Source: Microbacteriaceae bacterium (lineage in GTDB: Bacteria > Actinomycetota > Actinomycetes > Actinomycetales > Microbacteriaceae). From it: DNA of 64,000 bases. The stretch lies in contig DATMGN010000017.1 of assembly GCA_035555435.1 (NCBI GenBank), positions 10,775-74,774 of the forward strand. The letters are read 5' to 3'. Below the pieces are notes generated by a model. The model was not told where the DNA came from and searched no databases. It saw only the letters and a list, made by a program, of their open reading frames with translations. Shown here piece by piece: positions 25,304 to 42,716 of the stretch (its first letter is position 1; each line of letters starts with the position of its first letter). The position numbers and the translations under genes were made by a program.

Positions 25304-25344
25304 GCCGCCTTAGCTCAGTCGGCAGAGCATCTCACTCGTAATGA
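25304..25344 (+). pseudogene. 5' half of host tRNA-Thr(CGT), interrupted at the anticodon loop by the prophage (attL)
   Basis: GCCGCCT-TA-GCTC-AGTCGGCA-GAGC-A-TCTCA-CTCGTAA-TGA. The following sequence does not form the anticodon-stem 3' strand or a T arm. The matching 3' half is at 61227-61265. Confidence 0.85.
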
Positions 25345-25634
25345 TGAGGACCAGACTCGGGGGCAGGCTCGGCACTAGGCGGTCCCCATAGGAGCCAGTT
25401 CTGATCGACGCCGGTCGCGGCGCTGACCTTGGTGACGACTTCGGTGATCTTCCTGGGGGAGACGCCGTTCTCATAGCGAGCCCAATCGTTCTGACCTAGG
25501 CCGCATTTGACCGATGCCTCGGTTTGGTTCCAGCTCTTCGTCTGGCGGACCATCGCCAAGCGCGTACCGAACTCCGACGCGGTCGGGATCCACGCGCGTT
25601 CGGTCGCCTCGGGTACTGCACTCTGTGTTGTCAT
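25332..25634 (-). CDS. XRE-family phage repressor, prophage (truncated) form, 100 aa
   Basis: MTTQSAVPEATERAWIPTASEFGTRLAMVRQTKSWNQTEASVKCGLGQNDWARYENGVSPRKITEVVTKVSAATGVDQNWLLWG... HTH_XRE pattern. ORF crosses attL and ends in tRNA-derived sequence. Confidence 0.8.
   Translation of the reverse strand: MTTQSAVPEATERAWIPTASEFGTRLAMVRQTKSWNQTEASVKCGLGQNDWARYENGVSPRKITEVVTKVSAATGVDQNWLLWGPPSAEPAPESGPHHYE
25338..25344. repeat. attL crossover core GTAATGA
   Basis: Identical 7-mer at 61227-61233. Flanks partly similar (CTCGTAATGATGAGGACC vs CTTGTAATGAGAAGGTC). Confidence 0.75.
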
Positions 25635-25763
25635 GCAACAGATAGTGGCATAAGTCGCGCATAGCGCGCAATACGCGCGCGGGTATTTCCCAGGAACGGG
25701 TGCGCGACACGCCGCAAAAGATGTGTATTGCATCTAATGCGTGGGTATGCAACACTCAGACGC
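25635..25763. promoter_or_regulatory. divergent repressor / early-lytic control region with repeated ATGCAAYA half-sites
   Basis: ATGCAACA at 25633-25640 and 25747-25754. Inverted TATTGCAT at 25726-25733. GC-alternating block GCGCATAGCGCGCAATACGCGCGC at 25657-25680. Confidence 0.45.
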
Positions 25764-25952
25764 ATGACATCCGAAGTGTCGCATCTCACCACTAAGGAAG
25801 TGGCTAAGAGGTTCCGGGTCGATCCCTCGACCGTCCGCCGTTGGGCCGATTCCGGCTCCGTCCCGGCAACGAAGACACCGGGCGGTCGGTACCGGTTCGA
25901 CGCCGCCGACATCGACGCCCTCCTGACCTCCCCCGCGGAGAAGGCATCGTGA
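25764..25952 (+). CDS. excisionase-family (MerR-like) HTH DNA-binding protein, Xis/Cro candidate
   Basis: MTSEVSHLTTKEVAKRFRVDPSTVRRWADSGSVPATKTPGGRYRFDAADIDALL. Divergent from the repressor. Confidence 0.75.
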   Translation: MTSEVSHLTTKEVAKRFRVDPSTVRRWADSGSVPATKTPGGRYRFDAADIDALLTSPAEKAS

Positions 25953-26015
25953 GCGAGCTCTGGCCCGTGTCCCACGAAGCCGCTGTCGCCGAGATCGAGT
26001 GGATGACGAAGCGAC

Positions 26016-26219
26016 TCACCGCGATTGCAGAAAGCGTTCGATTCGCGCTATCCGTTCCGAGTTCTTATCGATCTGCTCCGCCAGCAGATTCAACGTGGAT
26101 TGCAGGGACACGAGCACGTCCCGCATCCACGGGTCGATCTGCGGGTGACCAGGGCTATACGTGCGACCGCTGTGCCACGTGTGGAACGCCGCGACGTTCT
26201 CCTTCGCAGAACTCGCCAT
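26016..26219 (-). CDS. hypothetical 67-aa protein, reverse-oriented, predicted coiled-coil C-terminus
   Basis: ATG comp. 26217-26219 preceded by GAAGGAGAAG. GC3-rich. MASSAKENVAAFHTWHSGRTYSPGHPQIDPWMRDVLVSLQSTLNLLAEQIDKNSERIARIERFLQSR. Confidence 0.55.
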   Translation of the reverse strand: MASSAKENVAAFHTWHSGRTYSPGHPQIDPWMRDVLVSLQSTLNLLAEQIDKNSERIARIERFLQSR

Positions 26220-26352
26220 TCGCTTCTCCTTCTGTCGGTGGCCCGGAAGTTGCACCTTCCGATCTGGCCGATGCAGCCACAGTAGGAGTCGCCCCGGACA
26301 CGGTGCCGCCTTCGGGCGCTGTGTCCGGGGACCCCAATGATGGGGGTGCGCG

Positions 26353-26529
26353 ATGAAGCTCCTCCGCGACATCCTCATCGTCGCCGCTGTGTTCGTCGTC
26401 GTGTTCACCGCGATCTGTTTCGTTCCGGTCGCGTTGGCGTTGGTCTTGTGGGCGGGTGTTCTCGCTTTGTTCGTGGTCGTGCCGGTGGGTGCGATCATTC
26501 GGCGTCGGTCACTCAGGAGCGGACGATGA
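26353..26529 (+). CDS. small two-TM membrane protein (58 aa)
   Basis: MKLLRDILIVAAVFVVVFTAICFVPVALALVLWAGVLALFVVVPVGAIIRRRSLRSGR. ATGA overlap with the next gene. Confidence 0.5.
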   Translation: MKLLRDILIVAAVFVVVFTAICFVPVALALVLWAGVLALFVVVPVGAIIRRRSLRSGR

Positions 26530-26810
26530 CCGCGACCGTGATCCCGTTCATTCCCCGCCCTGTGATGGAGAGCGGTCGGGAGGGTTGTGGGCCGCGTGTC
26601 CTGCCGGATGGTTGGGCGCGTGTGTCGACCGTCGTGCGATACGGGGATGACAAGGACGCCGTGTATTGGCATGGTCCCGTCGTCGCTCGCACCCCGGACG
26701 CGATCACGTTGACGATCTACGGCGAGGACGTCACGTTCCCGTTGGAGCAGCGTGCCCTGGTGAACGGGTGCGACATGCCGGTGCGACCGGGCTGGGTGGT
26801 GTCCGAATGA
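26526..26810 (+). CDS. hypothetical phage protein (94 aa)
   Basis: ATG 26526 after CAGGAGCGGAC. The upstream part of track ORF 26337 is Arg-rich junk. Confidence 0.55.
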   Translation: MTATVIPFIPRPVMESGREGCGPRVLPDGWARVSTVVRYGDDKDAVYWHGPVVARTPDAITLTIYGEDVTFPLEQRALVNGCDMPVRPGWVVSE

Positions 26811-27052
26811 GCGACACGCTCGCCGCGCTCCTGCATGTGGGGCAGACGGTGCAAACGCCCTTGTGGGATGCGGAGCTTCAGCGGCCGGCCCGCGCGGTGG
26901 TGACGTCGATCACGGCCATTGGTGAGCGTTTGCGCGTGTCCTATCGGTATCCGTCCGGGTACACGTCGGGGCAGTGGCTCAGTCCGCATGACCGTATCCC
27001 GGTCCCTGAATCGTCCGACCTGACCCCTCCTCGGCAGGTCGGCACCGGGTAG
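26807..27052 (+). CDS. hypothetical phage protein (81 aa)
   Basis: ATGA overlap with the upstream gene. GC3-rich. Confidence 0.55.
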   Translation: MSDTLAALLHVGQTVQTPLWDAELQRPARAVVTSITAIGERLRVSYRYPSGYTSGQWLSPHDRIPVPESSDLTPPRQVGTG

Positions 27053-27085
27053 CGAAAGCAGGGCCGGAGAGCCCAGCTACCCGCG

Positions 27086-27157
27086 CGGGGGTCGGACCCG
27101 AATCGACCCCCGCACCCAAACCACAGACAGAGAAAGCCCCCGGCGCGAACCGGGGGC
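27086..27157 (+). terminator. two GC-rich stem-loops in an early-region gap
   Basis: CGGGGGTCG...CGACCCCCG (27086-27112) and GCCCCCGG-cgcgaa-CCGGGGGC (27136-27157). No clear U-tract. Confidence 0.4.
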
Positions 27158-27185
27158 ACGACAACCGAAGGAATGGAGCCCTCGA

Positions 27186-27665
27186 ATGTCATCACAATCG
27201 TACGCCCCATACGACCTCAGAGCTGAGCAAGTGCAGGACGTTCCCCTTTTCGAGTCGATCGAAGCCGCATGGCCGACGATCACCGGTCTGTCACCTGCTG
27301 AGCATGAATACGACCGGCTCGTGTCGGGAGTGCCTGACTTGGCGCGACCAACCGATCCCGCTGAGTCGCACGCCGCGGCCCTCGCGATTCTCCCCAAGCG
27401 GAAGCGGTCACAGATCGCGGTCCTCAGGCTCATCGCAGAACTTGGATGGATCGACGGGCAGGAGTTGAACCGCGAGTACCGGGAACGGTACGCGAACACT
27501 GACATGCACCTTTCGTATGACTCGCCACGTAAGCGCGCGGGTGAGCTCATCGAACCCGGTCTCGTGCAGGTCCGCTCAGGGCATATCGCAGCGAACGGGA
27601 ATCCCGCACGCGAGTTCAAGATCACCGACCTGGGATGGGCACGACTGCGGGAGGTGACCGCGTGA
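27186..27665 (+). CDS. hypothetical phage protein (159 aa), possible winged-helix DNA-binding domain
   Basis: RBS GAAGGAATGGAG upstream. ...RSQIAVLRLIAELGWIDGQELNREY... Confidence 0.6.
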   Translation: MSSQSYAPYDLRAEQVQDVPLFESIEAAWPTITGLSPAEHEYDRLVSGVPDLARPTDPAESHAAALAILPKRKRSQIAVLRLIAELGWIDGQELNREYRERYANTDMHLSYDSPRKRAGELIEPGLVQVRSGHIAANGNPAREFKITDLGWARLREVTA

Positions 27666-28165
27666 TCAACATCAAGGACATCAAGCCAGGCGACACGATC
27701 GAGTTGACGTTCGAGAGCGTGAAGCTCATTCGTACGGCGACGTTGAACGGCCCGACGATCAATGCGCGGCTAGCGGTGGAGACGATGCCGCGCGGCACAT
27801 TCGTAAGCATCGCGCGCCTTATCGCCGACGGCTGGTCGATCACCGACCACAAGCCGAAGGTCGAACTGCCGACCGAGCCGGGCTGGTATCAGGCGGCATC
27901 GTTTCCCATCAGCGATCCGGGCTGGTATCCGTACGTCCTTGACGTAGACGGCGTCTGGCGCAGCTATGGCGACACCGGCTTCAAGGCGATGGACGACCCG
28001 GATGAACTGGCGACGGATGGCCCCCTCACCCGCCTCGTCCCCGAGGGCTCCGAGCGTGAGCAGGCAATCCAGGAAGTCATCGACTGGATCGGCTCGAGGC
28101 GAGCGGTAGCCGCCGAGATCACCCTGCTACGAGAGGCCCGTGAGCACTTCGGGGTCCAGTCGTGA
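27662..28165 (+). CDS. hypothetical phage protein (167 aa)
   Basis: GTGA overlap with the upstream stop. Coding-like GC3. Confidence 0.6.
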   Translation: MINIKDIKPGDTIELTFESVKLIRTATLNGPTINARLAVETMPRGTFVSIARLIADGWSITDHKPKVELPTEPGWYQAASFPISDPGWYPYVLDVDGVWRSYGDTGFKAMDDPDELATDGPLTRLVPEGSEREQAIQEVIDWIGSRRAVAAEITLLREAREHFGVQS

Positions 28166-28335
28166 TCCCGTTCCCGTCTCCTCTGTACCGGCGCCCGTCG
28201 TGGCGTGAGCGGTTCGGTTTCGCACTCGTGAACTACGTGCCGTGGTCGCCGACGCTCATCGCAGTGAGCATTCTCGCGGTCCTGATTGTGCCGCTCGCGG
28301 TGGTCGGCATGGTCGTGCTGGCGGTGACACGGTGA
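28162..28335 (+). CDS. small membrane protein (57 aa)
   Basis: GTGA overlap. ...PTLIAVSILAVLIVPLAVVGMVVLAV. Confidence 0.4.
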   Translation: MIPFPSPLYRRPSWRERFGFALVNYVPWSPTLIAVSILAVLIVPLAVVGMVVLAVTR

Positions 28336-28427
28336 ACCGCACCTGGTATCTGCTGAGCGTCATCGGCGGCAGCATCGTCGCGCTCATCGTCCTCATGGCG
28401 CTCGTGAACCTCGGGGTTCGCGCATGA
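28332..28427 (+). CDS. membrane peptide (31 aa)
   Basis: GTGA overlap. VNRTWYLLSVIGGSIVALIVLMALVNLGVRA. Confidence 0.3.
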   Translation: MNRTWYLLSVIGGSIVALIVLMALVNLGVRA

Positions 28428-29281
28428 GTGCGCTCACCGGCATTGTCCACGGCCTGCCCGAAGCCGACTACCACGCGCGGCCCGAACTGTCATCGACCGA
28501 AGCACGCCTGATCCTCGAGTCCCCGGCGAAGTACCGCTGGAAGAAAGACCACCCGCCGCTGGTCGCCCCGTCGAAGAAGTTCGACATCGGGTCCGCCGTT
28601 CACTCCAAGGTGCTCGGCACCGGGTACGACGTCGCGGTCATCCCTGACGAGATCCTCGCGTCCAACGGGGCGATCTCCACGAAGGAAGCGAAAGCGTTCG
28701 TGGATGAGGCACGCGCGGACGGGAAGATTCCGCTCAAGCGGGTCGACTTCGAACCGATCGACGCCGCCGCCGAATCCGTCCTCGCCCACCCGACCGCCCG
28801 AGCATTGTTCGATCAGCCCGGCGACGCCGAGGTGAGCGTGTTCGCGGAGATCGACGGCGTTCCCGTCCGAGCCCGGTTCGACTTCCTCCCCGAGCAGAGT
28901 GAGCGACGCCGGGTCGCGGTCGACTTGAAAACGGCTCGGGATGCGAGCTTCCGAGAGTTCGAACGGTCCATCGCATCACTCCGATACGACGTCCAGCGGT
29001 CCTGGTATCTCGCGGCACTCGACGCCGTGACTGGACCGATGCCGCACGGCTTGGAACCGGAGTTCGTGTACGTCGCGGTCGAGAAGGAACCGCCCTACCT
29101 CGTCGGTGTTCACGCGATCACCCCGCAATGGGCGGCGATCGGCGACGCGGCATCGGCGAAGGCTCGGCGGCTCTACGCGAGCTGCATGGAAGCGGGCGTG
29201 TGGCCCGGCTACCCCGAAGAAATCCAGTACCACGCGCCCCCGACGTGGCTCGTGATCCAAGCAGAGGAAGACGATGAGTGA
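28424..29281 (+). CDS. RecE-like PD-(D/E)XK exonuclease
   Basis: 285 aa. GLPEADYHARPELSSTEARLI..., ...RFDFLP...VAVDLKTARD... nuclease core. Directly upstream of recT. Confidence 0.7.
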   Translation: MSALTGIVHGLPEADYHARPELSSTEARLILESPAKYRWKKDHPPLVAPSKKFDIGSAVHSKVLGTGYDVAVIPDEILASNGAISTKEAKAFVDEARADGKIPLKRVDFEPIDAAAESVLAHPTARALFDQPGDAEVSVFAEIDGVPVRARFDFLPEQSERRRVAVDLKTARDASFREFERSIASLRYDVQRSWYLAALDAVTGPMPHGLEPEFVYVAVEKEPPYLVGVHAITPQWAAIGDAASAKARRLYASCMEAGVWPGYPEEIQYHAPPTWLVIQAEEDDE

Positions 29282-30086
29282 GGTTCAGGTTCGGCAGACG
29301 CCGGACATCATCCAGCAGGTCAACGCGTCGCAGTCGGGACTCGCCGCCGCCCTCGCGGACCGGATCGGTGTGGAGCGGTTCACGCGTGCCGCCGTCACGG
29401 TGCTCAGGACGACGCCCGCACTGTCGCGATGCACACCGGAGTCGGTACTTGGCGGGTTGTTCGTCGCCGCACAACTCGGCCTCGAGATCGGTGGTCCCCG
29501 TGCCTACGCACACTTGGTCCCGTACGGCAGAGACGCGCAACTGATCGTCGGCTACAAGGGCTACGTCGAGTTGTTCTACCGGGCCGGCGCGCGTGCGGTC
29601 ACAGCCGACATTGTTCGCGAGGGCGACGTGATTGAGCAGGCCACCGACGAGACGGGTCGGACCGTCATCCACTGGAAGAACGCGAATCCGCTGGACACCG
29701 ACCGCGCTCCGGTAGGCGCACTCGCGGTGGTTGTGCTGGCGTCTGGCGAGGTGTTGCAGAACTTCATGACGAAGGCGCAGATCCTCAAGCGCAAGCCGCG
29801 CACTTCAAAGGCCGGACCGTGGTCCGACTGGGAAGAGGAGATGTGGTTGAAGACGGTGCTGCGGGACACAGCCCGGACCGCACGCCTCTCGTCGGATGAT
29901 CTCGCTCTCGCGGTGCAGGCCGATCAGTCGATCACGACGGGGACCGGTGAGACGGCGAAGCGTCGTCATGTGGAGGTTGGTGAGGCCGAGTTCGAGCCGG
30001 TGACGGTCGCGGAACTGACGGCCCTGGTCGACGCTGAGCTCGATCCCGCGCACCCGGACTACGTGGCATCGGCAGACGAACGATGA
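29274..30086 (+). CDS. recT: RecT family single-strand annealing recombinase
   Basis: 270 aa. ...ESVLGGLFVAAQLGLEIGGPRAYAHLVPYG...QLIVGYKGYVELFYRAG... Confidence 0.8.
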   Translation: MSEVQVRQTPDIIQQVNASQSGLAAALADRIGVERFTRAAVTVLRTTPALSRCTPESVLGGLFVAAQLGLEIGGPRAYAHLVPYGRDAQLIVGYKGYVELFYRAGARAVTADIVREGDVIEQATDETGRTVIHWKNANPLDTDRAPVGALAVVVLASGEVLQNFMTKAQILKRKPRTSKAGPWSDWEEEMWLKTVLRDTARTARLSSDDLALAVQADQSITTGTGETAKRRHVEVGEAEFEPVTVAELTALVDAELDPAHPDYVASADER

Positions 30087-30319
30087 GCCGCGACTTTCCT
30101 CTCACGTCCGCTGACCTCCGGTACATCGCTGACCGCGTGGACGAGGTTTGCGCGGTGGTCGACCCGCCTGACGGTGAACTGAAGGACGGCGATTGGCGCT
30201 GGGGTCTACAGGTGACGATCTGGAACCAGGACGCCGCCGACGAAGACGACGTGGCTGGTGTGGTCGCTCCTCACGGCGACGGGTGGATCGGTTTCTATCC
30301 GAAGGGAATCGACCGTTGA
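30083..30319 (+). CDS. hypothetical phage protein (78 aa)
   Basis: ATGA overlap with recT. GC3-rich. Confidence 0.55.
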   Translation: MSRDFPLTSADLRYIADRVDEVCAVVDPPDGELKDGDWRWGLQVTIWNQDAADEDDVAGVVAPHGDGWIGFYPKGIDR

Positions 30320-30630
30320 CCCCCGCCGAGCGCCTACAGGCGGCAATCGACAAGCTCGAGCGGCTCAAGGCAGAGAGCGGCTACGTCGAGTTCAACGGGT
30401 GGCTTGCAGAGCCAAACCCCGGAGACACGGTGCGATCGCACCTTGAGCCGCGCGATGACTTGAGCCCGATCACGAACGATCCGCTTCTCGTCACCTTGCA
30501 TCGCACGATCGACGGGCAGATCGGCCTCCTCCAGTACACCCTCGGGATGCTCATCCACGATGACGTGCGCGCAGGGCAACTCGATCAGGTCCTCGCCCTC
30601 GCTGACGCGATCCTCGGGGGTGCCGAATGA
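30316..30630 (+). CDS. hypothetical phage protein (104 aa)
   Basis: TTG 30316 overlaps the upstream stop. Same frame as track ORF 30193-30630. Confidence 0.5.
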   Translation: MTPAERLQAAIDKLERLKAESGYVEFNGWLAEPNPGDTVRSHLEPRDDLSPITNDPLLVTLHRTIDGQIGLLQYTLGMLIHDDVRAGQLDQVLALADAILGGAE

Positions 30631-31352
30631 GCGCCCGGCCGAAACTCCTCGACCTGTTCTGCTGTCAGGGCGGTGCGTCCGAAGGTTACCGGCGTGCAGG
30701 GTTCGACGTGTACGGCAACGACATTGACCCGCAACCGCGCTACCCGTTCATGTTCACGAAGGGAGACGCGCTACTGACGCTGCGCCGACTACTCGCGGGC
30801 GATCCGGTGCCGTTCGGTGATGGGACCGGCCGCCTCGACTGGATGCACCTGTGGGACTTCGATGCGATTCACGCGAGCCCGCCGTGTCAGACGTTCACGG
30901 CGTACCGTCGCCGTGGCGCTGGGGTCGGGGATTCCTACCTGAATCTGATCCCCGAGACCCGCGAGTTGCTCGAACGAACCGGCCTGCCCTGGGTGATCGA
31001 GAACGTCGAAGGTGCGCGCGGTGAGCTCCGCGAATCAGTCCGCGTTTGCGGGTCGTCGTTCGGGCTCGACGTTCGCAGGCATCGGCTCTTTGAGTCGAGC
31101 GAGGCAATGTCTGGAACCGTCTGCGATCACGCATGGCAGACGCCCCGTTTCCCCCCAGCTACGAATCGCACGAACTTGCGCCGCACTGTCGAGGTAGGCG
31201 TCTGGCGTATTCCGCTGAACGTGCAGCAGGACGCGATGGGTGGGCTGGAGTGGATGACTCTCCGTGGGCTGTCCGAAGCGATCCCGCCGGCCTACACCGA
31301 GTTCATTGGCACCCAGCTCCTCGCTTCCCTCTCTGGGGAGGTGACCGCATGA
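30627..31352 (+). CDS. DNA (cytosine-5)-methyltransferase, compact
   Basis: Motif I LDLFCCQGGAS, IV SPPCQ, VI ENV, VIII RRHRLF, X AIPPAY. Confidence 0.8.
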   Translation: MSARPKLLDLFCCQGGASEGYRRAGFDVYGNDIDPQPRYPFMFTKGDALLTLRRLLAGDPVPFGDGTGRLDWMHLWDFDAIHASPPCQTFTAYRRRGAGVGDSYLNLIPETRELLERTGLPWVIENVEGARGELRESVRVCGSSFGLDVRRHRLFESSEAMSGTVCDHAWQTPRFPPATNRTNLRRTVEVGVWRIPLNVQQDAMGGLEWMTLRGLSEAIPPAYTEFIGTQLLASLSGEVTA

Positions 31353-32065
31353 CCTGCAAGAAGAAGAAGCCGTCCGAGTTTACGGAAGCAGTTGGCACAT
31401 GCCGGCACTGTGGCTCGGAGCTTCTGCAGAAGCGCGGAGAGAGCCGGGGACACTTCAGCACTCGGAAGTTCTGTGACCTCGATTGCTACCAAGCGAATGT
31501 TGATGTGCCGTGCTCATACCCAGGATGTGGTGGACGAAAGCTGGCGCGGGGATTGTGCTCAAAGCACTACGCCCGCGTTCGAGCAAACGGCTCCCCAGAA
31601 GTCGTCCGTCGCATAGTCGGAGCTTCGCTCGCCGAGCGTCTAGCCGCGTATTCCCGGCCCGATGGGGACTGTCTTGTTTGGTTTGGGGGTACTCACCGGA
31701 GTGGTCACGGGAAGATTCAAGTCTCGGGCAGGTCTATTGGTACGCACCGCATCGCATTCATCGAAGCGTATGGGCCGATTCCTGAAGGCTTGGTTGTTCG
31801 TCACAAGTGCGACAACCCACCGTGCATTCGCCCGGAGCATCTTGAGTTGGGGACCTCTGCGGACAATACGAACGACCGGACGATCCGAGGTCGAACGTCT
31901 ACCGCGAGACGCAAACTCGACGCCACGCAAGTGGTTGAAGTTCGGAGGCGAATCTTGGCGGGCGACTTCAAGCGAGACATTGCTATGGATTTCGGCGTCG
32001 TTCCGACTGTGATCTCCAATATCGCACTTGGCCGTGCCTACGTCGGGGTGGGGGTGACGGTGTGA
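31349..32065 (+). CDS. HNH (HNH_3-type) endonuclease with C-terminal HTH
   Basis: VVRHKCDNPPCIRPEHLELGTSADN. N-terminal Cys clusters. ATGA overlap. Confidence 0.75.
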   Translation: MTCKKKKPSEFTEAVGTCRHCGSELLQKRGESRGHFSTRKFCDLDCYQANVDVPCSYPGCGGRKLARGLCSKHYARVRANGSPEVVRRIVGASLAERLAAYSRPDGDCLVWFGGTHRSGHGKIQVSGRSIGTHRIAFIEAYGPIPEGLVVRHKCDNPPCIRPEHLELGTSADNTNDRTIRGRTSTARRKLDATQVVEVRRRILAGDFKRDIAMDFGVVPTVISNIALGRAYVGVGVTV

Positions 32066-32469
32066 TCCCGAAATCGCTCGTGAAGCGAGTCCTGGCCCGT
32101 GACCACGGCATGTGCGTGATCGCCGGCCCGCCCTGCACTCGTGACGCCACAGTCGCTGACCATCGCGTCAATCGTGGGCATGGCGGATCGAAGGTACTGA
32201 ACGATCTCGCGAACCTGATCGCCGCGTGCGGGCTGTGCAACGGATGGAAAGAGGACGTGGACGGCGAAGCTCTCATCGAGCTGCGCCGTCGCGGCGTCCG
32301 AGTGCAACCCGACTCGACTCATGCGAAGTCGCTCCTGCGCGCACAGATCACCCCGGTCGAGTATCCGAACGGCATGGTCGTCATCCTCACGTCGTCAGGC
32401 GATCGGCTCGCACAGGTGCTCATGAAGTCCGCGGGTGTGTCGATCCACGCGGACAGGAAGGTCAGCTGA
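32062..32469 (+). CDS. HNH endonuclease
   Basis: 135 aa. ...ATVADHRVNRGHGGSKVLNDLANLIAACGLCNGWKED. Confidence 0.7.
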   Translation: MIPKSLVKRVLARDHGMCVIAGPPCTRDATVADHRVNRGHGGSKVLNDLANLIAACGLCNGWKEDVDGEALIELRRRGVRVQPDSTHAKSLLRAQITPVEYPNGMVVILTSSGDRLAQVLMKSAGVSIHADRKVS

Positions 32470-33140
32470 TGGCGAAGGAGATTCGCACAGTCAAACGTGA
32501 CCTGTGGCGTTCGGACGATTTCAACGGCCTGTCCCGTGACGCTCGCCTCACATGGGTTGCGCTCATCAGCTACGCGGACGACCACGGCAGGTTCAAAGCC
32601 GACCCTCGGGAACTGTGGGCGTTCGCATGGTTGCACGACGGCGACATGCATGTGGAGGACGTCGGTCACCACCTGGCCGAGATGGTCGAGCGGGGCATGA
32701 TTCACGCCTATTCGGTGGACGGTCGGGACTATTTCGAGATCCCAACATGGTCGAAGCATCAGCGGGTGGATAACGCGGCGAAGTCTCCTATTCCTGCCCC
32801 TCGCGGCGATTCGCCGCAGTCTGCCGCGGTTCGCGGCGAACTGCCGCACGCTGCCGCTGGAGGGGAGGGGAGGGGAGAGGAAGGGAGGGGAGATGCCGCG
32901 GACCGCGGCGAACCCCCCGCCCCGTTCTGCTCGAAGCATCCCGGCGGTACGGATGATCCGTGCCGGGCGTGCGGGAACGCGCGTCGTCGTCGGGATGAGT
33001 GGGATGCGGAGGTTCGTAATCGGGCGACTCCGACTCCGAAGCGTGGTCCGTGCGATCACTCGAAAGCAACCAAGCAGGGTCTGACGGTGTGCGAGTGCGA
33101 TGCGCGACTCGAGGACGGCGTATGGAGGGCAGTCGCATGA
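32469..33140 (+). CDS. hypothetical phage protein, possible replication/DNA-binding function
   Basis: 223 aa. N-terminal ...RLTWVALISYADDHGRF... Gly/Glu/Arg low-complexity linker, Cys-rich C-terminus. Confidence 0.5.
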   Translation: MAKEIRTVKRDLWRSDDFNGLSRDARLTWVALISYADDHGRFKADPRELWAFAWLHDGDMHVEDVGHHLAEMVERGMIHAYSVDGRDYFEIPTWSKHQRVDNAAKSPIPAPRGDSPQSAAVRGELPHAAAGGEGRGEEGRGDAADRGEPPAPFCSKHPGGTDDPCRACGNARRRRDEWDAEVRNRATPTPKRGPCDHSKATKQGLTVCECDARLEDGVWRAVA

Positions 33141-34201
33141 AGCCGTACTACGCCGACGATCTCGTGACGCTGCATCAGGGCGATGCGCTCGATGTGTCCC
33201 GCGAGCTCGATCCGGGGTCGGTGCAGACGATCGTCACATCACCGCCATACTTCGGCCTCCGCGATTACGGAGTCGACGGTCAGCTCGGCGCTGAGCAGTC
33301 CGTGCAGGAGTACGTCGACCGGATGGTTGCCCTATTCCGCAGCCTCCGTGACGTGCTCGCGGATGACGGGACGCTGTGGCTCAATCTCGGCGACTCGTAC
33401 AGCGGTGCCGGCCCGTCCGGGGCGTCCTACGACTCAGCAACGACTAGACGCCGCGCTGAGGGTGACGGCATGGACGGCAAGTTTCGCGTCTCTAAGCGGC
33501 TCGCAGAGCGTGATCTGGACTACTCGCGCAAGAAGCCCGTCCCTACCAGTGGGATACCGGCAAAGAACCTTATCGGCGTCCCGTGGCGTGTCGCGTTCGC
33601 GCTCCAAGACGACGGGTGGATTCTCCGGTCGGACATCATCTGGGCGAAACCGAACCCGATGCCGGAGAGCGTGGCGGACCGGCCGACGAAGGCGCACGAG
33701 TACCTGTTCCTGATGAGTAAGTCGCCCCGGTACTACTACGACGCGGAGGCGATCAAGGAACCGGCGATCACAGGATTCAACGGGTCCGAGTTCCACACGG
33801 GCAAGACGGGCGAGCATCAGCTCGAGCGTGCGTCGAAGCAGCCACGATTCGGGGGGAATAAATACGGGCTCGGCAACGACACCCCGAAGTCGGGGAACGA
33901 GTACGCACCGAACGGACGGGCGAACAAGCGCACCGTCTGGTCTGTGCCCACGGTGCCGTTCAGTGAGGCGCACTTCGCCGTATACCCGCCTGAACTGATC
34001 CGCCCCTGCATCCTCGCCGGCTCGAGGCGTGGCGACACCGTGCTCGACCCGTTCTCGGGCTCTGGAACGACGGGCATGGTCGCCACGCAGGAGGGACGCC
34101 GCTACATCGGCGTCGACCTGAATCGGGAGTACCTCGAGCTGAGTCTGCGGTCGAGGTTCGCTCAGCCGGTGCTCGACATGACGGGCGGTGATGTCGCATG
34201 A
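33137..34201 (+). CDS. DNA methyltransferase, beta class (N4-cytosine or N6-adenine)
   Basis: Motif IV IVTSPPYFGLRDYG precedes motif I LDPFSGSGTTG. IWAKPNPMPES. Confidence 0.8.
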   Translation: MKPYYADDLVTLHQGDALDVSRELDPGSVQTIVTSPPYFGLRDYGVDGQLGAEQSVQEYVDRMVALFRSLRDVLADDGTLWLNLGDSYSGAGPSGASYDSATTRRRAEGDGMDGKFRVSKRLAERDLDYSRKKPVPTSGIPAKNLIGVPWRVAFALQDDGWILRSDIIWAKPNPMPESVADRPTKAHEYLFLMSKSPRYYYDAEAIKEPAITGFNGSEFHTGKTGEHQLERASKQPRFGGNKYGLGNDTPKSGNEYAPNGRANKRTVWSVPTVPFSEAHFAVYPPELIRPCILAGSRRGDTVLDPFSGSGTTGMVATQEGRRYIGVDLNREYLELSLRSRFAQPVLDMTGGDVA

Positions 34202-34509
34202 GTCAGGTCAAGATCCGCAATATCACCGCGACGGTCGAGGGCAGTGACCTGTGGCGGGCTGAGTCGAAACTCGGTGCGGATGGGCTGCGGTCGGGGATTA
34301 CGGCCGCGGTCGAGTCGGCGGTGCGAGTCATGGCGACATCGGGGCATCGGTCCCTGTCGGCGCGCGTCGCGGAACTGCATCGTGCGGGCTTGTGTGACGC
34401 GTTGATCGCAGGCGAGCTGAACGTCGTGAAGTACCGCGTCGGTGATATTCGCCGGCGTCTCGGATTGGAACCGAACCGGTGCCACCGGTCGGGAGGAAGG
34501 CGACAGTGA
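34198..34509 (+). CDS. hypothetical phage protein (103 aa)
   Basis: ATGA overlap with the methyltransferase. Possible C-terminal HTH. Confidence 0.5.
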   Translation: MSQVKIRNITATVEGSDLWRAESKLGADGLRSGITAAVESAVRVMATSGHRSLSARVAELHRAGLCDALIAGELNVVKYRVGDIRRRLGLEPNRCHRSGGRRQ

Positions 34510-34631
34510 ACGTCCTCAAATCCCCGGATTCGAACGTCCGTTCGATAGAATCAAAGCGGCCCCAAACCGAGTGCGCTAACACTCGCCGGGGCCTAACCCT
34601 CAACCAAGGTCTAGTTGATTGGAGGGCTACC

Positions 34632-35114
34632 GTGAATGGTACCCAAGACCCCCTTATCGTTGCTCGCTTCTGGAGCAAGGTCGAAGTGCGTCGCCCAGGC
34701 GAATGCTGGGACTGGCGCGCGAAGTCAGTCGGGAGCGGCGGTCACGGAGTGTTCCGCCCGAGCAAGTCCCTCCCACTAGTGAAGGCTCACAGATTCGCGT
34801 GGGAGGCCGCACATGGCCCCATCGCAGACGGAGTCATTCTTCGCCATCGATGCGATAACGCTGGGTGTTGCAATCCCGCGCACATGATCCCCGGCACTCA
34901 GGCCCAGAACGTGGCCGACATGCACATGCGCCGCCGTCGCCGCTACAAGACCCAGTTCTCGGACCAGCAGATCATCCAGATTCGCGAGCGGTATCTCGCC
35001 GGAGAGTCGCAGAGGTCGCTCGCTCAAGAGTTCGAGTGCTCGCAGAGCTACATATCCATGATCGTTCGCGGCGTCCGAGGCGTCGCGGCAATGAAGGGAA
35101 TCAGAGATGAATGA
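34632..35114 (+). CDS. HNH (HNH_3-type) endonuclease with C-terminal HTH, paralogue of 31349-32065
   Basis: GTG 34632 after GGAGGG. ...[26 protein letters not shown]...[17 protein letters not shown]. Confidence 0.7.
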
Positions 35115-35574
35115 AACCGTCGTTTGCGTCGTCGGCAACCTGACCGCCGACCCGGAGTTGCGTTTCACGCAGTCGGGTCTCGCGGTCGTGAACTTCACGA
35201 TCGCTAGTACGCCGAAGACGTTCGACAAGGCGAAGAACGAGTGGGTCAACGGCGAGACGCTGTTCCTGCGGGCGTCGTGCTGGCGTGAGTTCGCGGAGCA
35301 TGTCGCGGGCAGTCTCTCGAAGGGTTCGCGGGTCGTCGCGACGGGGAAGCTGCGGTCGCGTGCGTATGAGACCCGTGAGGGTGAGAAGCGGACGTCGATT
35401 GAGTTGGATGTGGACGAGATTGGTCCGTCGCTGCGATATGCGACGGCGACTGTGACCAGGAGCGCGTCAAACGACCGAGCAAACGGCTCACCAAGCGCGA
35501 TTTCAGGGAATGACTCGTGGAATGCGCCCGCAGATTGGACGGAGGTCGGCAATGTCTCCGAAACGCCGTTCTAG
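35107..35574 (+). CDS. ssb: single-stranded DNA-binding protein
   Basis: [29 protein letters not shown] fold, C-terminal tip SETPF. Confidence 0.9.
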
Positions 35575-35839
35575 TCACATTGAGGGTCTGACGGAGTACG
35601 CGACCGAGCGAGAGACAACGGTCACCTACTCGCCGGGTGATCCGGTCGTGCGGATCTGGACGAGCGTCGCGAAGCATCTGCGGGCGTTCCGAGCTGACTC
35701 GGGCTACTCCGAAACGAGGTCTTGGCCGGCTGACGGTCTGACCCCCGAGGCGGCTGAGTTCACGATTCGCCGTGACTTGTACGAAGTGGCTCGTGGGCGT
35801 CGTCGTCCGCGTGGTCCGAAGGGAGACGCCGATGCCTGA
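35552..35839 (+). CDS. hypothetical phage protein (95 aa)
   Basis: Internal ATG of track ORF 35510-35839. Start uncertain. Confidence 0.45.
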
Positions 35840-36086
35840 CACCTACACGCCGACGACGGGGGAGGTGCGCGACACATTCGCAGCGTTTCACTACACGAGC
35901 CGTCATGGGTCGGAGGTCGCCACCGAGTTCGACCGGTGGCTAGCGCAGGAGCAGGCGAAGGCGTGGGATGAGGGTGCGCTGTGGGCTGCTGTCGAGTGCG
36001 GCGTCATTGCCAACGAGCACGGGCGGTTTCTCGCTCCCGGCGACAACCCCTACCGCGCTCGTCTCTCCTCTGGAGGTGAGGGATGA
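35832..36086 (+). CDS. hypothetical phage protein (84 aa)
   Basis: ATG 35832 in track ORF 35772-36086. Confidence 0.5.
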   Translation: MPDTYTPTTGEVRDTFAAFHYTSRHGSEVATEFDRWLAQEQAKAWDEGALWAAVECGVIANEHGRFLAPGDNPYRARLSSGGEG

Positions 36087-36235
36087 GCGAGCCATGCCCG
36101 TACTGCGGGCGCTTCATGCGTCAGGTCTGGCACCAGGCGTCCGACGAGCCGGACAGTTGGCAGGACTACTGGCGATGCGTCCAGCACGAGAAGCACAAGA
36201 AGGACCATCCAGACGATTTCGGAGGCCCCCGATGA
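36083..36235 (+). CDS. small zinc-ribbon-like protein (50 aa)
   Basis: MSEPCPYCGRFM...WRCVQHEKH. ATGA overlaps at both ends. Confidence 0.45.
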   Translation: MSEPCPYCGRFMRQVWHQASDEPDSWQDYWRCVQHEKHKKDHPDDFGGPR

Positions 36236-36447
36236 CCTCCATCCAGCAGGCCGCAGAAGGCGCTGAGTGGGCGCTTGAGCGTGCGGCGCGTGTCGTGGAA
36301 TCGAACCTTGGGCGGTCGTGGATCGGCACTGAGACGCCGAGGGACATCGCCACCGCTATCCGTTCCCTGTCCACCACGTCTATCCCGATTTCCGGATCAT
36401 CCGGGTCTGATCGCGAAAACACGATAAAGGAGGAGAGCAATGAGTGA
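36232..36447 (+). CDS. hypothetical phage protein (71 aa)
   Basis: ATGA overlap. In frame with track ORF 35968-36447. Confidence 0.45.
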   Translation: MTSIQQAAEGAEWALERAARVVESNLGRSWIGTETPRDIATAIRSLSTTSIPISGSSGSDRENTIKEESNE

Positions 36448-36685
36448 GATTCAAGCGTCGGGGCGCTACAGGGTCTGGTACATCCCGCAGGTTCCGATGC
36501 CTGCATTCGAGCGAGAGTTCAGCGACCTGGAGACAGCGAAGGTGGTCCTCAACGCGATCATCGACTTCTCGATTTTCGAGTTCGAGAGCCGAATCAAGCC
36601 GGACTACTCCGACATGGCAGGTATCGCTGTTTGGGACGGCGAGGACTGGGAAGATCTGGACGAGAGCGAGTGGTCTGATGCCTGA
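36440..36685 (+). CDS. hypothetical acidic phage protein (81 aa)
   Basis: Track ORF. RBS AAGGAGGAG upstream. Confidence 0.6.
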   Translation: MSEIQASGRYRVWYIPQVPMPAFEREFSDLETAKVVLNAIIDFSIFEFESRIKPDYSDMAGIAVWDGEDWEDLDESEWSDA

Positions 36686-36995
36686 TCTCGATGCCCTGCT
36701 GACCGAGGCGGATCAGTTCGTCGCTACTCGCGGTGAGTCTCGACGCGACACAGATCTCGTGCAGCGTCTCGCATCCGCTCTCCGTTCCGTCCAGGTACCG
36801 GTGACCGAGGAGATGGGATGGGAGTACGGGGTCACGCGCGATCCCGGTTCGGCGTACGCGGAGTACACGGTCGGAACTGAGGGTGTGGTTCGCGAGTACG
36901 CGGCGAAACGCCCGCACCTCCACGCGTGTCGCCGACGCAAGGCTGGCCCCTGGGAGACCTTGCCCACCCCCGGCACCACAACAGAGGAGGAATGA
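36678..36995 (+). CDS. hypothetical phage protein (105 aa)
   Basis: ATG 36678 inside track ORF 36444-36995. Confidence 0.5.
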   Translation: MPDLDALLTEADQFVATRGESRRDTDLVQRLASALRSVQVPVTEEMGWEYGVTRDPGSAYAEYTVGTEGVVREYAAKRPHLHACRRRKAGPWETLPTPGTTTEEE

Positions 36996-36998
36996 GAG

Positions 36999-37184
36999 AT
37001 GGCCCGACAGTTCATTGCGATCGTCACCGTTGAGGACGGGACGACGTTCAATCAGATTCGAGAGGCGGCGCAGTCGTTCATCGAGTGTACGCCGATGTTC
37101 GTCGAGGCGGTTCGGTTCACGGAGGCGCGGGAGTATCGCCTTCCGCCACTTTCGGAGCCGACCCCATCCGTAGGGGAGGAATGA
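36999..37184 (+). CDS. hypothetical phage protein (61 aa)
   Basis: Track ORF. GGAGGAATGAGAGATG junction. Confidence 0.5.
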   Translation: MARQFIAIVTVEDGTTFNQIREAAQSFIECTPMFVEAVRFTEAREYRLPPLSEPTPSVGEE

Positions 37185-37187
37185 GAG

Positions 37188-37529
37188 ATGAAGCGCACCA
37201 ATGAGATCCAGGGCACCCGACGACTTCCCGATCTCGACTACCGAGAGAACTTCTCCATGCGGAAGGACCCCCCAGGCACCTACGTCAAGATCGTGAACTT
37301 CCCGCCGATGGCGGTTGGGCCGACAAACCTCACGGGCGACCTTTGGTTCGTGATTACACCGAATGGACTGCTTGGCAATCTCGGCAATCACACCGTGCGA
37401 GAGGAAGATGACGGCACGATCTCCGTGAATCCTGGGGATGGGTCCAGTAACAGCATTCTCGTCAACGGGGGTGAACAGGGCTCCTGGCATGGATACATCA
37501 CTCGTGGCCTGTGGTGGAGCCTCGCATGA
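37188..37529 (+). CDS. hypothetical phage protein (113 aa)
   Basis: Track ORF. Identical GGAGGAATGAGAGATG junction. Confidence 0.55.
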   Translation: MKRTNEIQGTRRLPDLDYRENFSMRKDPPGTYVKIVNFPPMAVGPTNLTGDLWFVITPNGLLGNLGNHTVREEDDGTISVNPGDGSSNSILVNGGEQGSWHGYITRGLWWSLA

Positions 37530-38035
37530 CCGCCATCGACCTCGACGCGATCCGAGCACGACACCGGAAGACCCGAGTGCAGGTCGGCTCCGAGACGCAC
37601 GGTGGCCCACCGCAGTACGGCGACGTGTGCGTCCAGTCAGGGTGTGGTGTGGCGTGGCCCTGCGAGACTGCCGCGCTCCTGGCGGAGATTGACCGTCTCC
37701 TCGCCCTGGTGTCCGAACCGCCGACCGACGACGAGGTGAAGGCGCTGGTTGCCGTGCTTGACCCCGCAGATTCGTCGCGGCACAGCGGGCGTCTCTGGGC
37801 AGGTCGAAGCCTTCATGCTACTCAGGCCCAGGAGATTGCTAACGCGATCATCGCCGCTGGCTTCACCCGCCGCCCCATGCCGAGCGAGGACGAGATCGCT
37901 CGCGCGATGGCCGCTGCGATCAACTCGGAGACGGGACAGGAGTCCGGCTGGACGTTGACGCCTGGCGGTGGAGAACGAATGGTCAGGATCTGCGCCGCCA
38001 CTGCACTCGCCCTGTTCAAGGGAGCCGAGGGATGA
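37526..38035 (+). CDS. hypothetical phage protein (169 aa)
   Basis: ATGA overlap. Track ORF 37511-38035. Confidence 0.55.
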   Translation: MTAIDLDAIRARHRKTRVQVGSETHGGPPQYGDVCVQSGCGVAWPCETAALLAEIDRLLALVSEPPTDDEVKALVAVLDPADSSRHSGRLWAGRSLHATQAQEIANAIIAAGFTRRPMPSEDEIARAMAAAINSETGQESGWTLTPGGGERMVRICAATALALFKGAEG

Positions 38036-38169
38036 CGTTCAAGATGCATCGCCGGACTGACCCGGCGTGCCGCCGACACCGCGTACCGAGGTGGTGGTTC
38101 GACCGGTGGTGGTTCGACCGGAATCGCGGCTATAGCTGCCAGGTCTGCATGAAGGGGGCAGAGGGATGA
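38032..38169 (+). CDS. small Arg/Trp-rich protein (45 aa) with in-frame 15-bp tandem duplication
   Basis: ATGA overlaps at both ends. ...RWWFDRWWFD... Confidence 0.35.
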   Translation: MTFKMHRRTDPACRRHRVPRWWFDRWWFDRNRGYSCQVCMKGAEG

Positions 38170-38522
38170 CCCCCGACGAGATGAAGGCGCTGATCGACAG
38201 TGTGGCCCACGATATTGTGGAGCACCGCTGGCCGCACGTCGATGCTGAGGTATTCGAGGAGCTTCGACAGGCGCATCTCGATCTCGCAGAGAAGATCGTC
38301 ACCGAGGTCCTAGCCGCCCTGTCCGCTCACCCCGCCGAGGAGACGGACAGCGCACGACGACTGCTGTGGATCATCGCTGATCGCAACATCGACGGCATCA
38401 CAATCTCAGATGCGGAGCTTGTGGCCGTGCCGCGCTTGCCGGGGATCAGCGTCGAGCGCGACCTCGAACGGGGCGTCACGGTGATTCGCGCGGTCCCTAC
38501 TGACAGGGAGGCCGACGCATGA
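38166..38522 (+). CDS. hypothetical phage protein (118 aa)
   Basis: Track ORF, overlapping junctions. Confidence 0.55.
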   Translation: MTPDEMKALIDSVAHDIVEHRWPHVDAEVFEELRQAHLDLAEKIVTEVLAALSAHPAEETDSARRLLWIIADRNIDGITISDAELVAVPRLPGISVERDLERGVTVIRAVPTDREADA

Positions 38523-39232
38523 TCGCCGACAGCGAGTTTCGCGATAGGAGAGACATGAACACCCTGCTCGACGTCGACGCTGACGTGTCTATCCGTAAAC
38601 TCGTCGCCCCGTGGTCTGACGTGCTGTCCCCGAAGGAAACCGGGACGGGTCGGTATCAGCCGGTCGATTACCCGCCACTGCTGGACATGCTCGATGAGGC
38701 GTGCCGATCAAATATTGGGGGTGTGCCGACTGGGGGTCGCTCGGACCCATCCGCACGGAACCTACTGAACCTCGAGGCGCACATGCTTCGGGAGCATATT
38801 GACGGGACGGTGCGCGCGTGGCTTCGGGAACTGTCGAAAGCGCGTGCCGAGGTCGAGTTGAAGTCTGCTCTGGCGCAGCTCGCCGGAGTGCTGAACGCAC
38901 ACCATGCGGCGGGGACGATGCCGGATAGTGAGTGGGAGCGGATCAGCCGATTCTTCCCGCGGTGGTGTGACCGAATCTGGCAGTTGTTTGACCCGCCCGT
39001 CGTGAAGGAACTTGCGGGTGCGTGCCCTTCCTGCACGGAGACGACGTTCACGGGCCTCGACGGGGCGAAGACAACGGCGCTCATCGCGTACTACTGGAAG
39101 GGCATCCGGCCGGAAGCAAAATGTCAGAGGTGCGGGGAACACTGGAGTGGCGAGCGGGCGTTGCTTGATCTCGGCTACCACCTGGGCGCAACGGTCGACG
39201 AGGACGCACTGCGAGAAATGGGAGTGCTGTGA
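38519..39232 (+). CDS. hypothetical phage protein (237 aa) with C-terminal CxxC...CxxC
   Basis: Track ORF. ...GACPSCTE...KCQRCGEHW. Confidence 0.55.
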   Translation: MIADSEFRDRRDMNTLLDVDADVSIRKLVAPWSDVLSPKETGTGRYQPVDYPPLLDMLDEACRSNIGGVPTGGRSDPSARNLLNLEAHMLREHIDGTVRAWLRELSKARAEVELKSALAQLAGVLNAHHAAGTMPDSEWERISRFFPRWCDRIWQLFDPPVVKELAGACPSCTETTFTGLDGAKTTALIAYYWKGIRPEAKCQRCGEHWSGERALLDLGYHLGATVDEDALREMGVL

Positions 39233-39861
39233 GACTGCAAAAGGTCAGGATGAGAACCACGAACGGGGAGTCCGAGATGCGGTTCTACTGCCGGTTGTGC
39301 CGCAGTCACATCTCACGTCCGTCCGCCTATGAGATCGATCATCGCAATCCCGGGATATGCGATCTCTGCTCAGAGCTTGTACTGAGTTTGATGCGCGACC
39401 ACGGCTCAAAGTGGGCGACGCTGGACAAGCGGGAGTTTGAACAACGACTTGGCGAGGACGAGCGCGAGAGGAAACACCGGAAGAGTGTTGAGCGCCTTGC
39501 GCGCGGGAGTACCGACCCTGGCTGGGTCTACTACGTCGAGCAGGGCGACCTCATCAAGATCGGGTACTCCGCGAACCCGCTCGGCCGGATGAAGTCCTAT
39601 GGCCCGACCGCCCATCTGATGGCGGTTCACCCAGGGACGCTCGCTCTCGAGAAAGAGATCCATGCGCAGTTCCGCCGCTACCTCGCTCGCGGCAGGGAGT
39701 GGTTCTCTCGGCATGAAGTGGTCCTTGCCCATGTTGCAAGCGTCCGAGAGCGATTCGGCGACCCGTCCGTCTTCGCCTACGCCTACACGATTCCGCCAGA
39801 GAAACGTGGCTCCGGCGTGTCGCAGCGAAAAACATCAGCGCGCTTCCAACTCGTCAGGTAG
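39229..39861 (+). CDS. T5orf172 / GIY-YIG-like domain protein with N-terminal zinc ribbon
   Basis: FYCRLCRSH...CDLC, then WVYYVEQGDLIKIGYSANPLGRMKSY...EKEIHAQF...GREWF. Confidence 0.65.
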   Translation: MRLQKVRMRTTNGESEMRFYCRLCRSHISRPSAYEIDHRNPGICDLCSELVLSLMRDHGSKWATLDKREFEQRLGEDERERKHRKSVERLARGSTDPGWVYYVEQGDLIKIGYSANPLGRMKSYGPTAHLMAVHPGTLALEKEIHAQFRRYLARGREWFSRHEVVLAHVASVRERFGDPSVFAYAYTIPPEKRGSGVSQRKTSARFQLVR

Positions 39862-39899
39862 ACTCGCGAGTACGCGCCATTAGTGCGCTCTGAATCGGG

Positions 39900-39926
39900 A
39901 AGCCTCGCCTCGAGCGGGGCTTTCGT
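39900..39926 (+). terminator. stem-loop plus T-rich tail ending the early operon
   Basis: AAGCCTCGC-ctcga-GCGGGGCTT followed by TCGTCATT. Lies in a 215-bp non-coding gap. Confidence 0.5.
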
Positions 39927-40076
39927 CATTCCCACGGCCGATCGCACGACGACGGCTCTTTTCGCCGTTGCGGCCCTGATCTTCCCGACTCCCGAGACAC
40001 ACTCACACCGCCCTGAGCGGTCATGCTCGCGAGATTGTCGGGATCACCCCTCACCCGCTCGCACGGGAGGTACAGC

Positions 40077-40304
40077 ATGTCCAAACTTGCGGAGCGTATC
40101 GCTCAGGCTCAACCGAAACCGCGTCTACGGTTGGATGATTGGTTCGCCGGCCTCGATGCTGAGGACCGTGCAGCCGTGCAGAACGTGGCACTCGACCCGG
40201 CATGGACGAACGTCATGCTGGTCTCATTCCTCGCAGGTGAGGGATTGGAGATCGGCAAGGACGCGGTGGCGGCGTGGAGGGCTCGCCTTGGGTTCCGTCG
40301 CTGA
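40077..40304 (+). CDS. hypothetical small protein (75 aa), possible HTH / small-terminase-like
   Basis: ATG 40077 after GGGAGG. MSKLAERIAQAQPKPRLRLDDWFAGLDAEDRAAVQNVALDP... Confidence 0.5.
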   Translation: MSKLAERIAQAQPKPRLRLDDWFAGLDAEDRAAVQNVALDPAWTNVMLVSFLAGEGLEIGKDAVAAWRARLGFRR

Positions 40305-41118: not shown

Positions 41119-41204
41119 CCGCTTTCCCACGCATTACCGCGTGATCCGCACCTAACGCTTGCAATCCCAATCAAGGGAGGCAGTGATGTGTCCTGACTGC
41201 GAGC

Positions 41205-42658: not shown

Positions 42659-42716
42659 GCCCAGACCCTAGCGGCTGCCCCCACCCCGCGATAGACCGCA
42701 ATAGGGGGGAGACGAC

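Follow-up and report, generated by a model that had tools for sequence, protein, structure and literature searches.

Here, we describe a complete siphovirus-type prophage in a Microbacteriaceae bacterium (NCBI GenBank assembly GCA_035555435.1, contig DATMGN010000017.1, positions 10,775 to 74,774; this whole stretch of 64,000 nucleotides is called the window, and positions below are counted from its first letter) that splits the host gene for tRNA-Thr(CGT) and carries a gene for a tRNA of identical anticodon directly after its integrase gene (int). The host gene is destroyed, and neither of the two junctions between prophage and host, attL and attR, rebuilds a tRNA. The phage attachment site (attP) lies inside the repressor gene (rep), and integration truncates the repressor C-terminally. 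Our reading, to which we assign a probability of about 0.85, is that an integrase (Int) of the type known from mycobacteriophage Brujita splits tRNA-Thr(CGT), that the phage tRNA replaces its function and that attP sits in the repressor gene, i.e., that tRNA-dependent lysogeny is combined with the layout of integration-dependent immunity. An earlier note on this DNA had concluded that the lysogen loses this tRNA. The host gene is indeed inactivated, yet a canonical tRNA-Thr(CGT) is encoded by the prophage itself, and the note had named this phage tRNA as a probe target without linking it to the split gene. The position of attP inside the repressor gene and the arm-less, Brujita-like nature of the integrase go beyond that note.

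The host tRNA-Thr(CGT) gene is split and not rebuilt

The 5' part of the host gene (GCCGCCTTAGCTCAGTCGGCAGAGCATCTCACTCGTAATGA) and its 3' part (GTAATGAGAAGGTCGTGGGTTCGATTCCCACAGGCGGC) stand on the forward strand, 35.9 kb apart, with the coordinates and sequences that the earlier note had claimed for them (Table 1). The two parts overlap in GTAATGA only (25338-25344 and 61227-61233), and a second copy of the 3' half was not found in the window when up to three mismatches were allowed. The prophage between them has a G+C content of about 0.63, as compared to about 0.70 for the host.

The empty site is found in metagenome contigs of this host, which were retrieved via the neighbouring TetR protein (identical). 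In two of them (L122, L123; L numbers denote the compared contigs and loci), the TetR gene is directly followed by an intact tRNA-Thr(CGT) gene and then by the DUF3500 gene, with flanks that are identical to those of the window and a sequence that matches the bacterial attachment site (attB) reconstructed from attL and attR. The intact gene scores 73.9 bits with the Rfam tRNA model. The empty site bears out that the prophage split this gene in its anticodon loop and stem. Three independent contigs (L124, L125, L126) stop inside the 7-bp core at attL, which we ascribe to an assembly fork where lysogens and non-lysogens were mixed in the sample. The attL junction is also present in an independent assembly (L121), and both attL and attR junctions recur in the independent assemblies ERZ27256372, SRR7976247, and SRR7976147. 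The empty site with identical flanks and the independent junctions thus indicate that the insertion is real, precise, and polymorphic in nature.

A genome scan with the tRNA 5' half and core as query, including one genome per species, recovered 28 loci in 27 actinobacterial genomes, mostly Microbacteriaceae. Each locus is an intact tRNA-Thr(CGT) gene and occurs once per genome, and the 3' half is identical to window positions 61234-61265 in 10 of the 28. The window's neighbouring genes were found at none of these 28 loci.

ARAGORN calls no tRNA at attL and none at attR. The attR hybrid scores 18.9 bits with the Rfam tRNA model, under threshold, in line with the earlier statement that attR cannot supply a 5' half. 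The earlier note had also proposed a covariance-model check of attL, where detection of a functional tRNA would have spoken against it. The attL hybrid (25304-25384) does nominally reach the Rfam RF00005 gathering score (29.1 bits vs 29), but the alignment is local, with 27 unaligned bases in place of the whole T arm and two mismatches in the anticodon stem, and indicates no functional tRNA; it agrees with the note's description of phage DNA at attL that lacks a T arm and mismatches the anticodon stem. In this alignment, the host 5' two-thirds are intact and the acceptor strand GCCGCCU is paired with a phage AGGCGGU (G1-U72), and it is this phage heptamer that causes the borderline match. The minimum-free-energy (MFE) fold of the hybrid is not a cloverleaf. 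The attL hybrid was rejected as a functional tRNA, as the T arm is skipped and both ARAGORN and the MFE fold are unsupportive. The sister attP sites L032 and L042 lack the heptamer, which resembles the acceptor segment CACAGGCGGCTCCC of the related locus L045 and of Brujita; it may be a remnant of a core that was once longer, or a product of chance.

Some further observations concern the junctions. The anticodon loop of the attR hybrid (61219-61233, forward strand) reads CTTGTAA, which would give the anticodon TGT. The phage CTT to the left of the attR core is shared with L045 (CGACTTGTAATGA) and encodes the conserved repressor residues Y-K. The promoter of the split host tRNA gene, left of attL, now faces the prophage and runs antisense to the repressor gene (about 25250-25634), and no obvious terminator was seen. 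Sub-threshold Rfam matches to 'Plastid-ycf2 5'UTR' (60112-60184, forward strand; 61201-61266, reverse strand) were dismissed as an artefact of tRNA-like symmetry; they fall antisense to tRNA sequences, as they likewise do in Brujita and L122.

The prophage encodes tRNA-Thr(CGT) directly after int

The phage tRNA-Thr(CGT) gene is the sole tRNA called by ARAGORN in the 64 kb. Its product folds into a perfect cloverleaf and matches the host tRNA in G1-C72, C2-G71, the CGU anticodon, and U73. Its acceptor stem reads GCCCUCG, that of the host tRNA GCCGCCU. The first base of the gene lies 14 nt past the int stop codon (13 nt between), and the same int-tRNA unit recurs at the same spacing in eight loci (L030, L031, L032, L033, L035, L036, L039, L041); in L030, L031, L039, L041, L032, and L033, the Int proteins are 88%, 87%, or 71% identical to that of the window. 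Between two lineages, both sides of the acceptor-stem pairs 4-69, 5-68, and 7-66 have changed with the pairing preserved, and these compensatory changes are evidence that a working phage tRNA is selected for. ACG makes up 60% of the threonine codons in sampled host genes and 52% in phage genes. As ACG is the main threonine codon in both, the phage would have no special codon need of its own, and the host would feel the loss of the tRNA.

The phage tRNA copies (60141-60147 on the reverse strand of the window; L032; L030) all read GTAATGG (C29-G41), whereas the host attB reads GTAATGA (U29-A41). This one-base difference falls into the presumed overlap region and might protect the phage tRNA gene from the phage's own integrase.

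The 14-nt spacer that separates int from the tRNA gene is almost invariant even where Int is only 71% identical, which could reflect a promoter or a processing signal. A candidate promoter was read from the sequence and its conservation (TTGGAA-18 nt-TAGGAT), with the int stop codon inside the -10 element; L032 has TTTGAA and TAAGAT at the same spacing. On the 3' side of the tRNA gene, a G+C-rich hairpin (CGCCCCGCGCGAC...GTCGCGCGGGGCG) possibly terminates the int-tRNA unit. A free attP junction of precisely this phage was not found, nor was its tRNA in IMG/VR. Among isolated phages, no similar tRNA or int-tRNA cassette was found, and the matches were either unrelated tRNAs or to the integrase only.

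The attachment site lies within the repressor gene

Pfam finds only a SAM-like and a catalytic domain in the integrase, which aligns end to end with Brujita Int at about 40% identity. It ends in -RLAA, and an -AA ending is found in most members of this Int family. The repressor shares 36% identity with Brujita gp34 (E 1e-18), and the crossover falls at HY, at the equal residue, in both proteins. In the prophage, the last Glu codon and the TGA stop codon of the repressor derive from the anticodon stem of the host tRNA. The viral form of the repressor (118 aa), rebuilt by joining attL and attR, ends in ...GPHHYKATTPREVAIGPWIGSRVA before its stop codon (the terminus is also given as ...HHYKATTPREVAIGPWIGSRVA), and the 19-residue tail thereby restored, KATTPREVAIGPWIGSRVA, is encoded at attR just upstream of int.

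The gene order rep-attP-int-tRNA is present in unintegrated form in L032-L034 (Int 71% identical) and L040/L042 (87-90%). In these loci TCATTAC, the reverse complement of the core, forms the repressor codons (N/H)-H-Y, with a similar tail after it. In L032 (1533-1586) and L042 (about 2330-2390) the tail is conserved, with the consensus (R)EVA(I/V)GPWIGSRV(A/S) or NVISGPWKNIA, and would be an atypical degradation signal if it is one. A relative with an 88% identical Int occupies the same core beside the same DUF3500 gene. Divergent from the repressor gene, the window encodes a small HTH_17/MerR-like protein in a layout equal to that of Brujita gene 35. Judged by these sequence features, the rep/int cassette has the layout of integration-dependent immunity (reviewed in PMC9262239).

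Long-core relatives and lineages with a tRNA gene after int

The Brujita gp34 gene carries the whole tRNA 3' half in antisense (TAATGAATAGGTCGGGGGTTCGATTCCCCCAGGCGGCTCC), and no tRNA gene follows int in this phage. The unintegrated locus L045 (Int 44% identical) has the same arrangement on the very tRNA that is split in the window: its repressor gene contains a 42-bp block (GTAATGAGAAGGTCGTGGGTTCGATTCCCACAGGCGGCTCCC) that is identical to the 3' part of this tRNA and encodes ...GSRLWESNPRPSHYK..., its repressor ends in -PAA and its Int in -IAA, and no tRNA was found within the 168 nt of contig after int. In L043, L044, L047, and L048 the crossover is likewise at TCATTAC, and a full tRNA 3' half is present in antisense. 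GTAATGA is the crossover across this Int subfamily.

We scored 49 informative metagenome loci of the Int family for an antisense T arm and acceptor upstream of int and for a same-strand tRNA directly after int. The antisense T arm without a downstream tRNA was found in 27 loci and neither feature in 16, while the six loci with a downstream tRNA all lacked the upstream T arm; both features together were found in none. The six loci belong to an Arg-CCT lineage (five) and to Lys-TTT (one). With so few lineages the mutual exclusion is not statistical, and we regard it as suggestive. In the first lineage (L070-L073, L075) a tRNA-Arg CCT stands 21 nt after int, and in L100 a tRNA-Lys TTT stands 0 nt after int, in each case on the same strand and without an antisense tRNA 3' half upstream. 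The open reading frame upstream of int in L070 ends in -IAA. Matching these tRNAs to the region upstream of int gave no informative match for an attP core in either lineage. Both are candidates for further modules of tRNA-dependent lysogeny. A different arrangement is seen in L057 (1085-1158) and L080 (1264-1337), where, unlike in the window, an opposite-strand tRNA-Arg(CCT) abuts the int stop codon with no spacer.

Other features of the window

Besides the integrase, repressor, and tRNA genes, the prophage contains genes for RecE/RecT, large terminase, portal, major capsid, tape measure, and minor tail proteins, an M23 peptidase lysin, and a holin. The positions of the features discussed here are compiled in Table 1.

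Table 1. Features of the prophage and of the split tRNA gene in the window.
Feature	Position	Strand	Evidence or remark
Prophage, about 35.9 kb, siphovirus-type, complete	25345..61226		
Host tRNA-Thr(CGT) 5' part at attL: acceptor 5' strand, D arm, anticodon stem 5' strand, loop; core at end	25304..25344	+	Identical in L122, L123, and 27 genomes
Core GTAATGA at attL, tRNA positions 35-41	25338..25344	+	Sole attP/attB identity
Displaced tRNA-Thr(CGT) 3' part at attR: core, anticodon stem 3' strand, variable loop, T arm, acceptor 3' strand	61227..61265	+	
Phage heptamer AGGCGGT, pairs with host acceptor 5' strand	25378..25384	+	Causes borderline Rfam match
Phage tRNA-Thr(CGT), CCA encoded, presumed replacement of the split host gene	60110..60184	-	ARAGORN; Rfam 71.2 bits
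Candidate phage tRNA promoter	60195..60224	-	Sequence reading and conservation
G+C-rich hairpin 3' of the tRNA gene, possible int-tRNA terminator	60006..60044	-	Sequence reading; no call in T-tail-dependent scan
Tyrosine integrase, 284 aa, without arm-binding N-terminal domain, C-terminus ...ERLAA	60198..61052	-	Pfam PF00589, 8.9e-21
Repressor, prophage form, helix-turn-helix (HTH) protein, 100 aa, ends ...GPHHYE, crosses attL	25332..25634	-	Pfam HTH_31; L120 gene call
Detached viral repressor 3' end at attR: 19-residue tail and stop codon	61167..61226	-	
Divergent HTH_17/MerR-like gene, 62 aa, Cro- or Xis-like	25764..25952	+	129 nt from repressor start codon

Proposed mechanism and alternatives

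We propose that a temperate siphovirus-type phage of a Microbacteriaceae host integrates into the tRNA-Thr(CGT) gene, with its small arm-less Int exchanging strands within GTAATGA. Brujita Int reportedly uses a 6-base overlap, a result attributed to Lunt and Hatfull in 2016. As attP lacks the tRNA 3' half, the host tRNA gene is destroyed by this step. Most likely, the phage tRNA-Thr(CGT) directly after int would supply the missing function and decode ACG in the lysogen. Integration would at the same time swap the repressor's C-terminal tail for Glu and a stop codon read from the host tRNA, and would detach int and the tRNA gene from the repressor promoter. Since the phage tRNA has to be produced by the prophage, it needs a promoter of its own. 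The proposal further takes the host tRNA-Thr(CGT) gene to be present in one copy and to be required, and both the tail of the viral repressor and the -LAA terminus of Int to serve as degradation signals.

Several points weigh against this proposal. The phage tRNA would have to be expressed in the lysogen and to make up for the lost gene. After integration, int and the tRNA gene are cut off from the repressor promoter, and the candidate tRNA promoter is a weak consensus match (8/12). Scans for consensus promoters and terminators in the int-tRNA and rep-cro regions gave no calls, with the candidate promoter among the sites not called. The host is a metagenome-assembled genome and may have a second tRNA-Thr(CGT), or a tRNA-Thr(UGU) may read ACG by wobble. 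Finally, the tails of the viral repressors finish with -RVA, -RVS, and -NIA, as opposed to the -AA that is typical of ssrA-like tags.

The phage tRNA could instead be unrelated to the split gene and serve lytic translation or counter tRNA-targeting defences, with the host tolerating the loss by means of a second copy or of tRNA-Thr(UGU). Phages often carry tRNAs for other proposed reasons (PMC10865867), and this metagenome-assembled host may have such a second copy. However, the anticodon of the phage tRNA is exactly that of the destroyed gene, and the tRNA is joined to int in every relative examined. In the 49-locus survey a tRNA follows int only where attP lacks a tRNA 3' half (six loci, against 27 of the reverse kind and none with both), and the long-core siblings L045 and Brujita have no tRNA gene. 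Phage use of ACG does not exceed that of the host, and the tRNA sequence is single-copy in the 27 related genomes. With these observations in hand, we consider an unrelated role of the phage tRNA improbable.

A chimeric assembly as the cause of the split, or a dead end in which the phage entered a secondary site while it does rebuild its real target, would fit the origin of the window from a metagenome assembly and the documented integration of tRNA-deleted mutants at secondary sites (PMC10865867). Against this stand the recurrence of both junctions in the three independent assemblies, the relative whose 88% identical Int occupies the same core beside the DUF3500 gene, and the use of the GTAATGA crossover across the Int subfamily; in addition, the unintegrated attP forms of three lineages contain no T arm and could rebuild no tRNA. 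We regard this reading as very improbable. Least probable of all, and hardly credible, is that the attL hybrid works as an unusual tRNA. Its nominal Rfam score and its paired acceptor strands would speak for this, whereas the missing T arm and the anticodon-stem mismatches, a score far from the 73.9 bits of the intact gene, the rejection by ARAGORN, the MFE fold, the absence of AGGCGGT from sister attP sites, and the fact that the region is repressor coding sequence all speak against it.

It is tempting to extend the proposed replacement of the split tRNA by the phage copy to the origin of the module. Two unusual lysogeny systems, both described by the Hatfull laboratory, may have been fused in one compact rep-attP-int-tRNA module, in which the int-linked tRNA would have freed the repressor 3' region from encoding a tRNA 3' half, and the identity between attP and attB would have shrunk to the bare overlap of an arm-less recombinase. 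Such a module might have originated repeatedly in this integrase family (Thr-CGT and, as candidates, Arg-CCT and Lys-TTT). We regard this scenario as an even bet. If it is true, a stable and immune lysogen would need both int and the tRNA.

Significance

The phenomenon as such, tRNA-dependent lysogeny, is already known. New here are the arm-less Int together with a repressor-embedded attP, the Thr-CGT isotype, the Microbacteriaceae host, the 7-bp core, and the pair of long- and short-core relatives. The window prophage would extend tRNA-dependent lysogeny past lambda-like integrases and past cultured Mycobacterium and Gordonia phages into uncultured Microbacteriaceae, and it would do so in nature, where metagenomes hold lysogens, empty sites, and free attP forms. 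The 42-bp core without a tRNA gene and the 7-bp core with a tRNA gene make up a natural matched pair on one tRNA sequence, which could help to ask which of the two states arose first. Predictors of prophages and attB sites that need long attL/attR repeats or rebuilt tRNAs would miss or misplace such elements. The compact int-tRNA cassette with its minimal attP could become an actinobacterial integration vector.

Comparison with known systems

tRNA-dependent lysogeny was shown experimentally for Fionnbharth and related phages (Guerrero-Bustamante & Hatfull 2024, mBio; PMC10865867). The phages concerned are Fionnbharth, LeBron, Cain, Gaia, BrutonGaster, OneUp, and Mollymur, and also Lj965 of Lactobacillus johnsonii (PMC10865867). 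The window prophage resembles them in that a tyrosine integrase uses an attB located within a tRNA gene, with a very short core, the tRNA is not rebuilt, and the phage has its own gene for a tRNA whose anticodon equals that of the disrupted host tRNA; as in Gaia, this tRNA stands downstream of int (PMC10865867). Long-core relatives without a tRNA gene are found on both sides, with Ximenita as compared to Cain and Omega as compared to Gaia (PMC10865867), and with L045 and Brujita as compared to the window prophage. The published cases have lambda-like integrases with arm-binding domains and flanking arm sites, cores of 8-17 bp, and the isotypes Lys-TTT, Ile2-CAT, and Leu-CAA in Table 2 of that study (PMC10865867). 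In contrast, the window Int is arm-less, its attP lies inside the repressor gene, the isotype is Thr-CGT, the host belongs to the Microbacteriaceae, and the 7-bp core is shorter than any in that list. In tRNA-dependent lysogeny, which that study demonstrated experimentally, viable lysogens require the phage tRNA and its deletion gives a clear-plaque phenotype; for the window prophage such a requirement is predicted. Integration-dependent immunity is brought up there as a contrast only (PMC10865867), and we found no paper in the literature searched that reports both systems in one phage.

Integration-dependent immunity (Broussard et al. 2013) is known from the mycobacteriophages BPs, Brujita, and Charlie and from Gordonia and Mycobacterium abscessus prophages. 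The window prophage shares with these systems a repressor that is truncated on integration by a stop codon from the host tRNA, an arm-less Int ending in -LAA, a divergent Cro- or MerR-like gene, and an attB in a tRNA gene. Integration-dependent systems retain the tRNA in the lysogen through a core of about 35 bp that carries the tRNA 3' end (review, PMC9262239), whereas the window core has 7 bp and no T arm, a separate tRNA gene follows int, and the viral repressor tail ends in -VA, -VS, or -IA rather than -AA. A tRNA-Thr that is impaired at attL after integration was described for the M. abscessus tandem prophage prophiT36-2a/2b (Amarh et al. 2023, PMC9934374). There too, a prophage with integration-dependent immunity impairs a tRNA-Thr and compensation is needed, but the proposed rescue is a second prophage in tandem that restores the tRNA, and not a phage-encoded tRNA (PMC9934374). 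The tRNA 3' end in the core is a property of the known members of integration-dependent immunity and not of the immunity mechanism itself.

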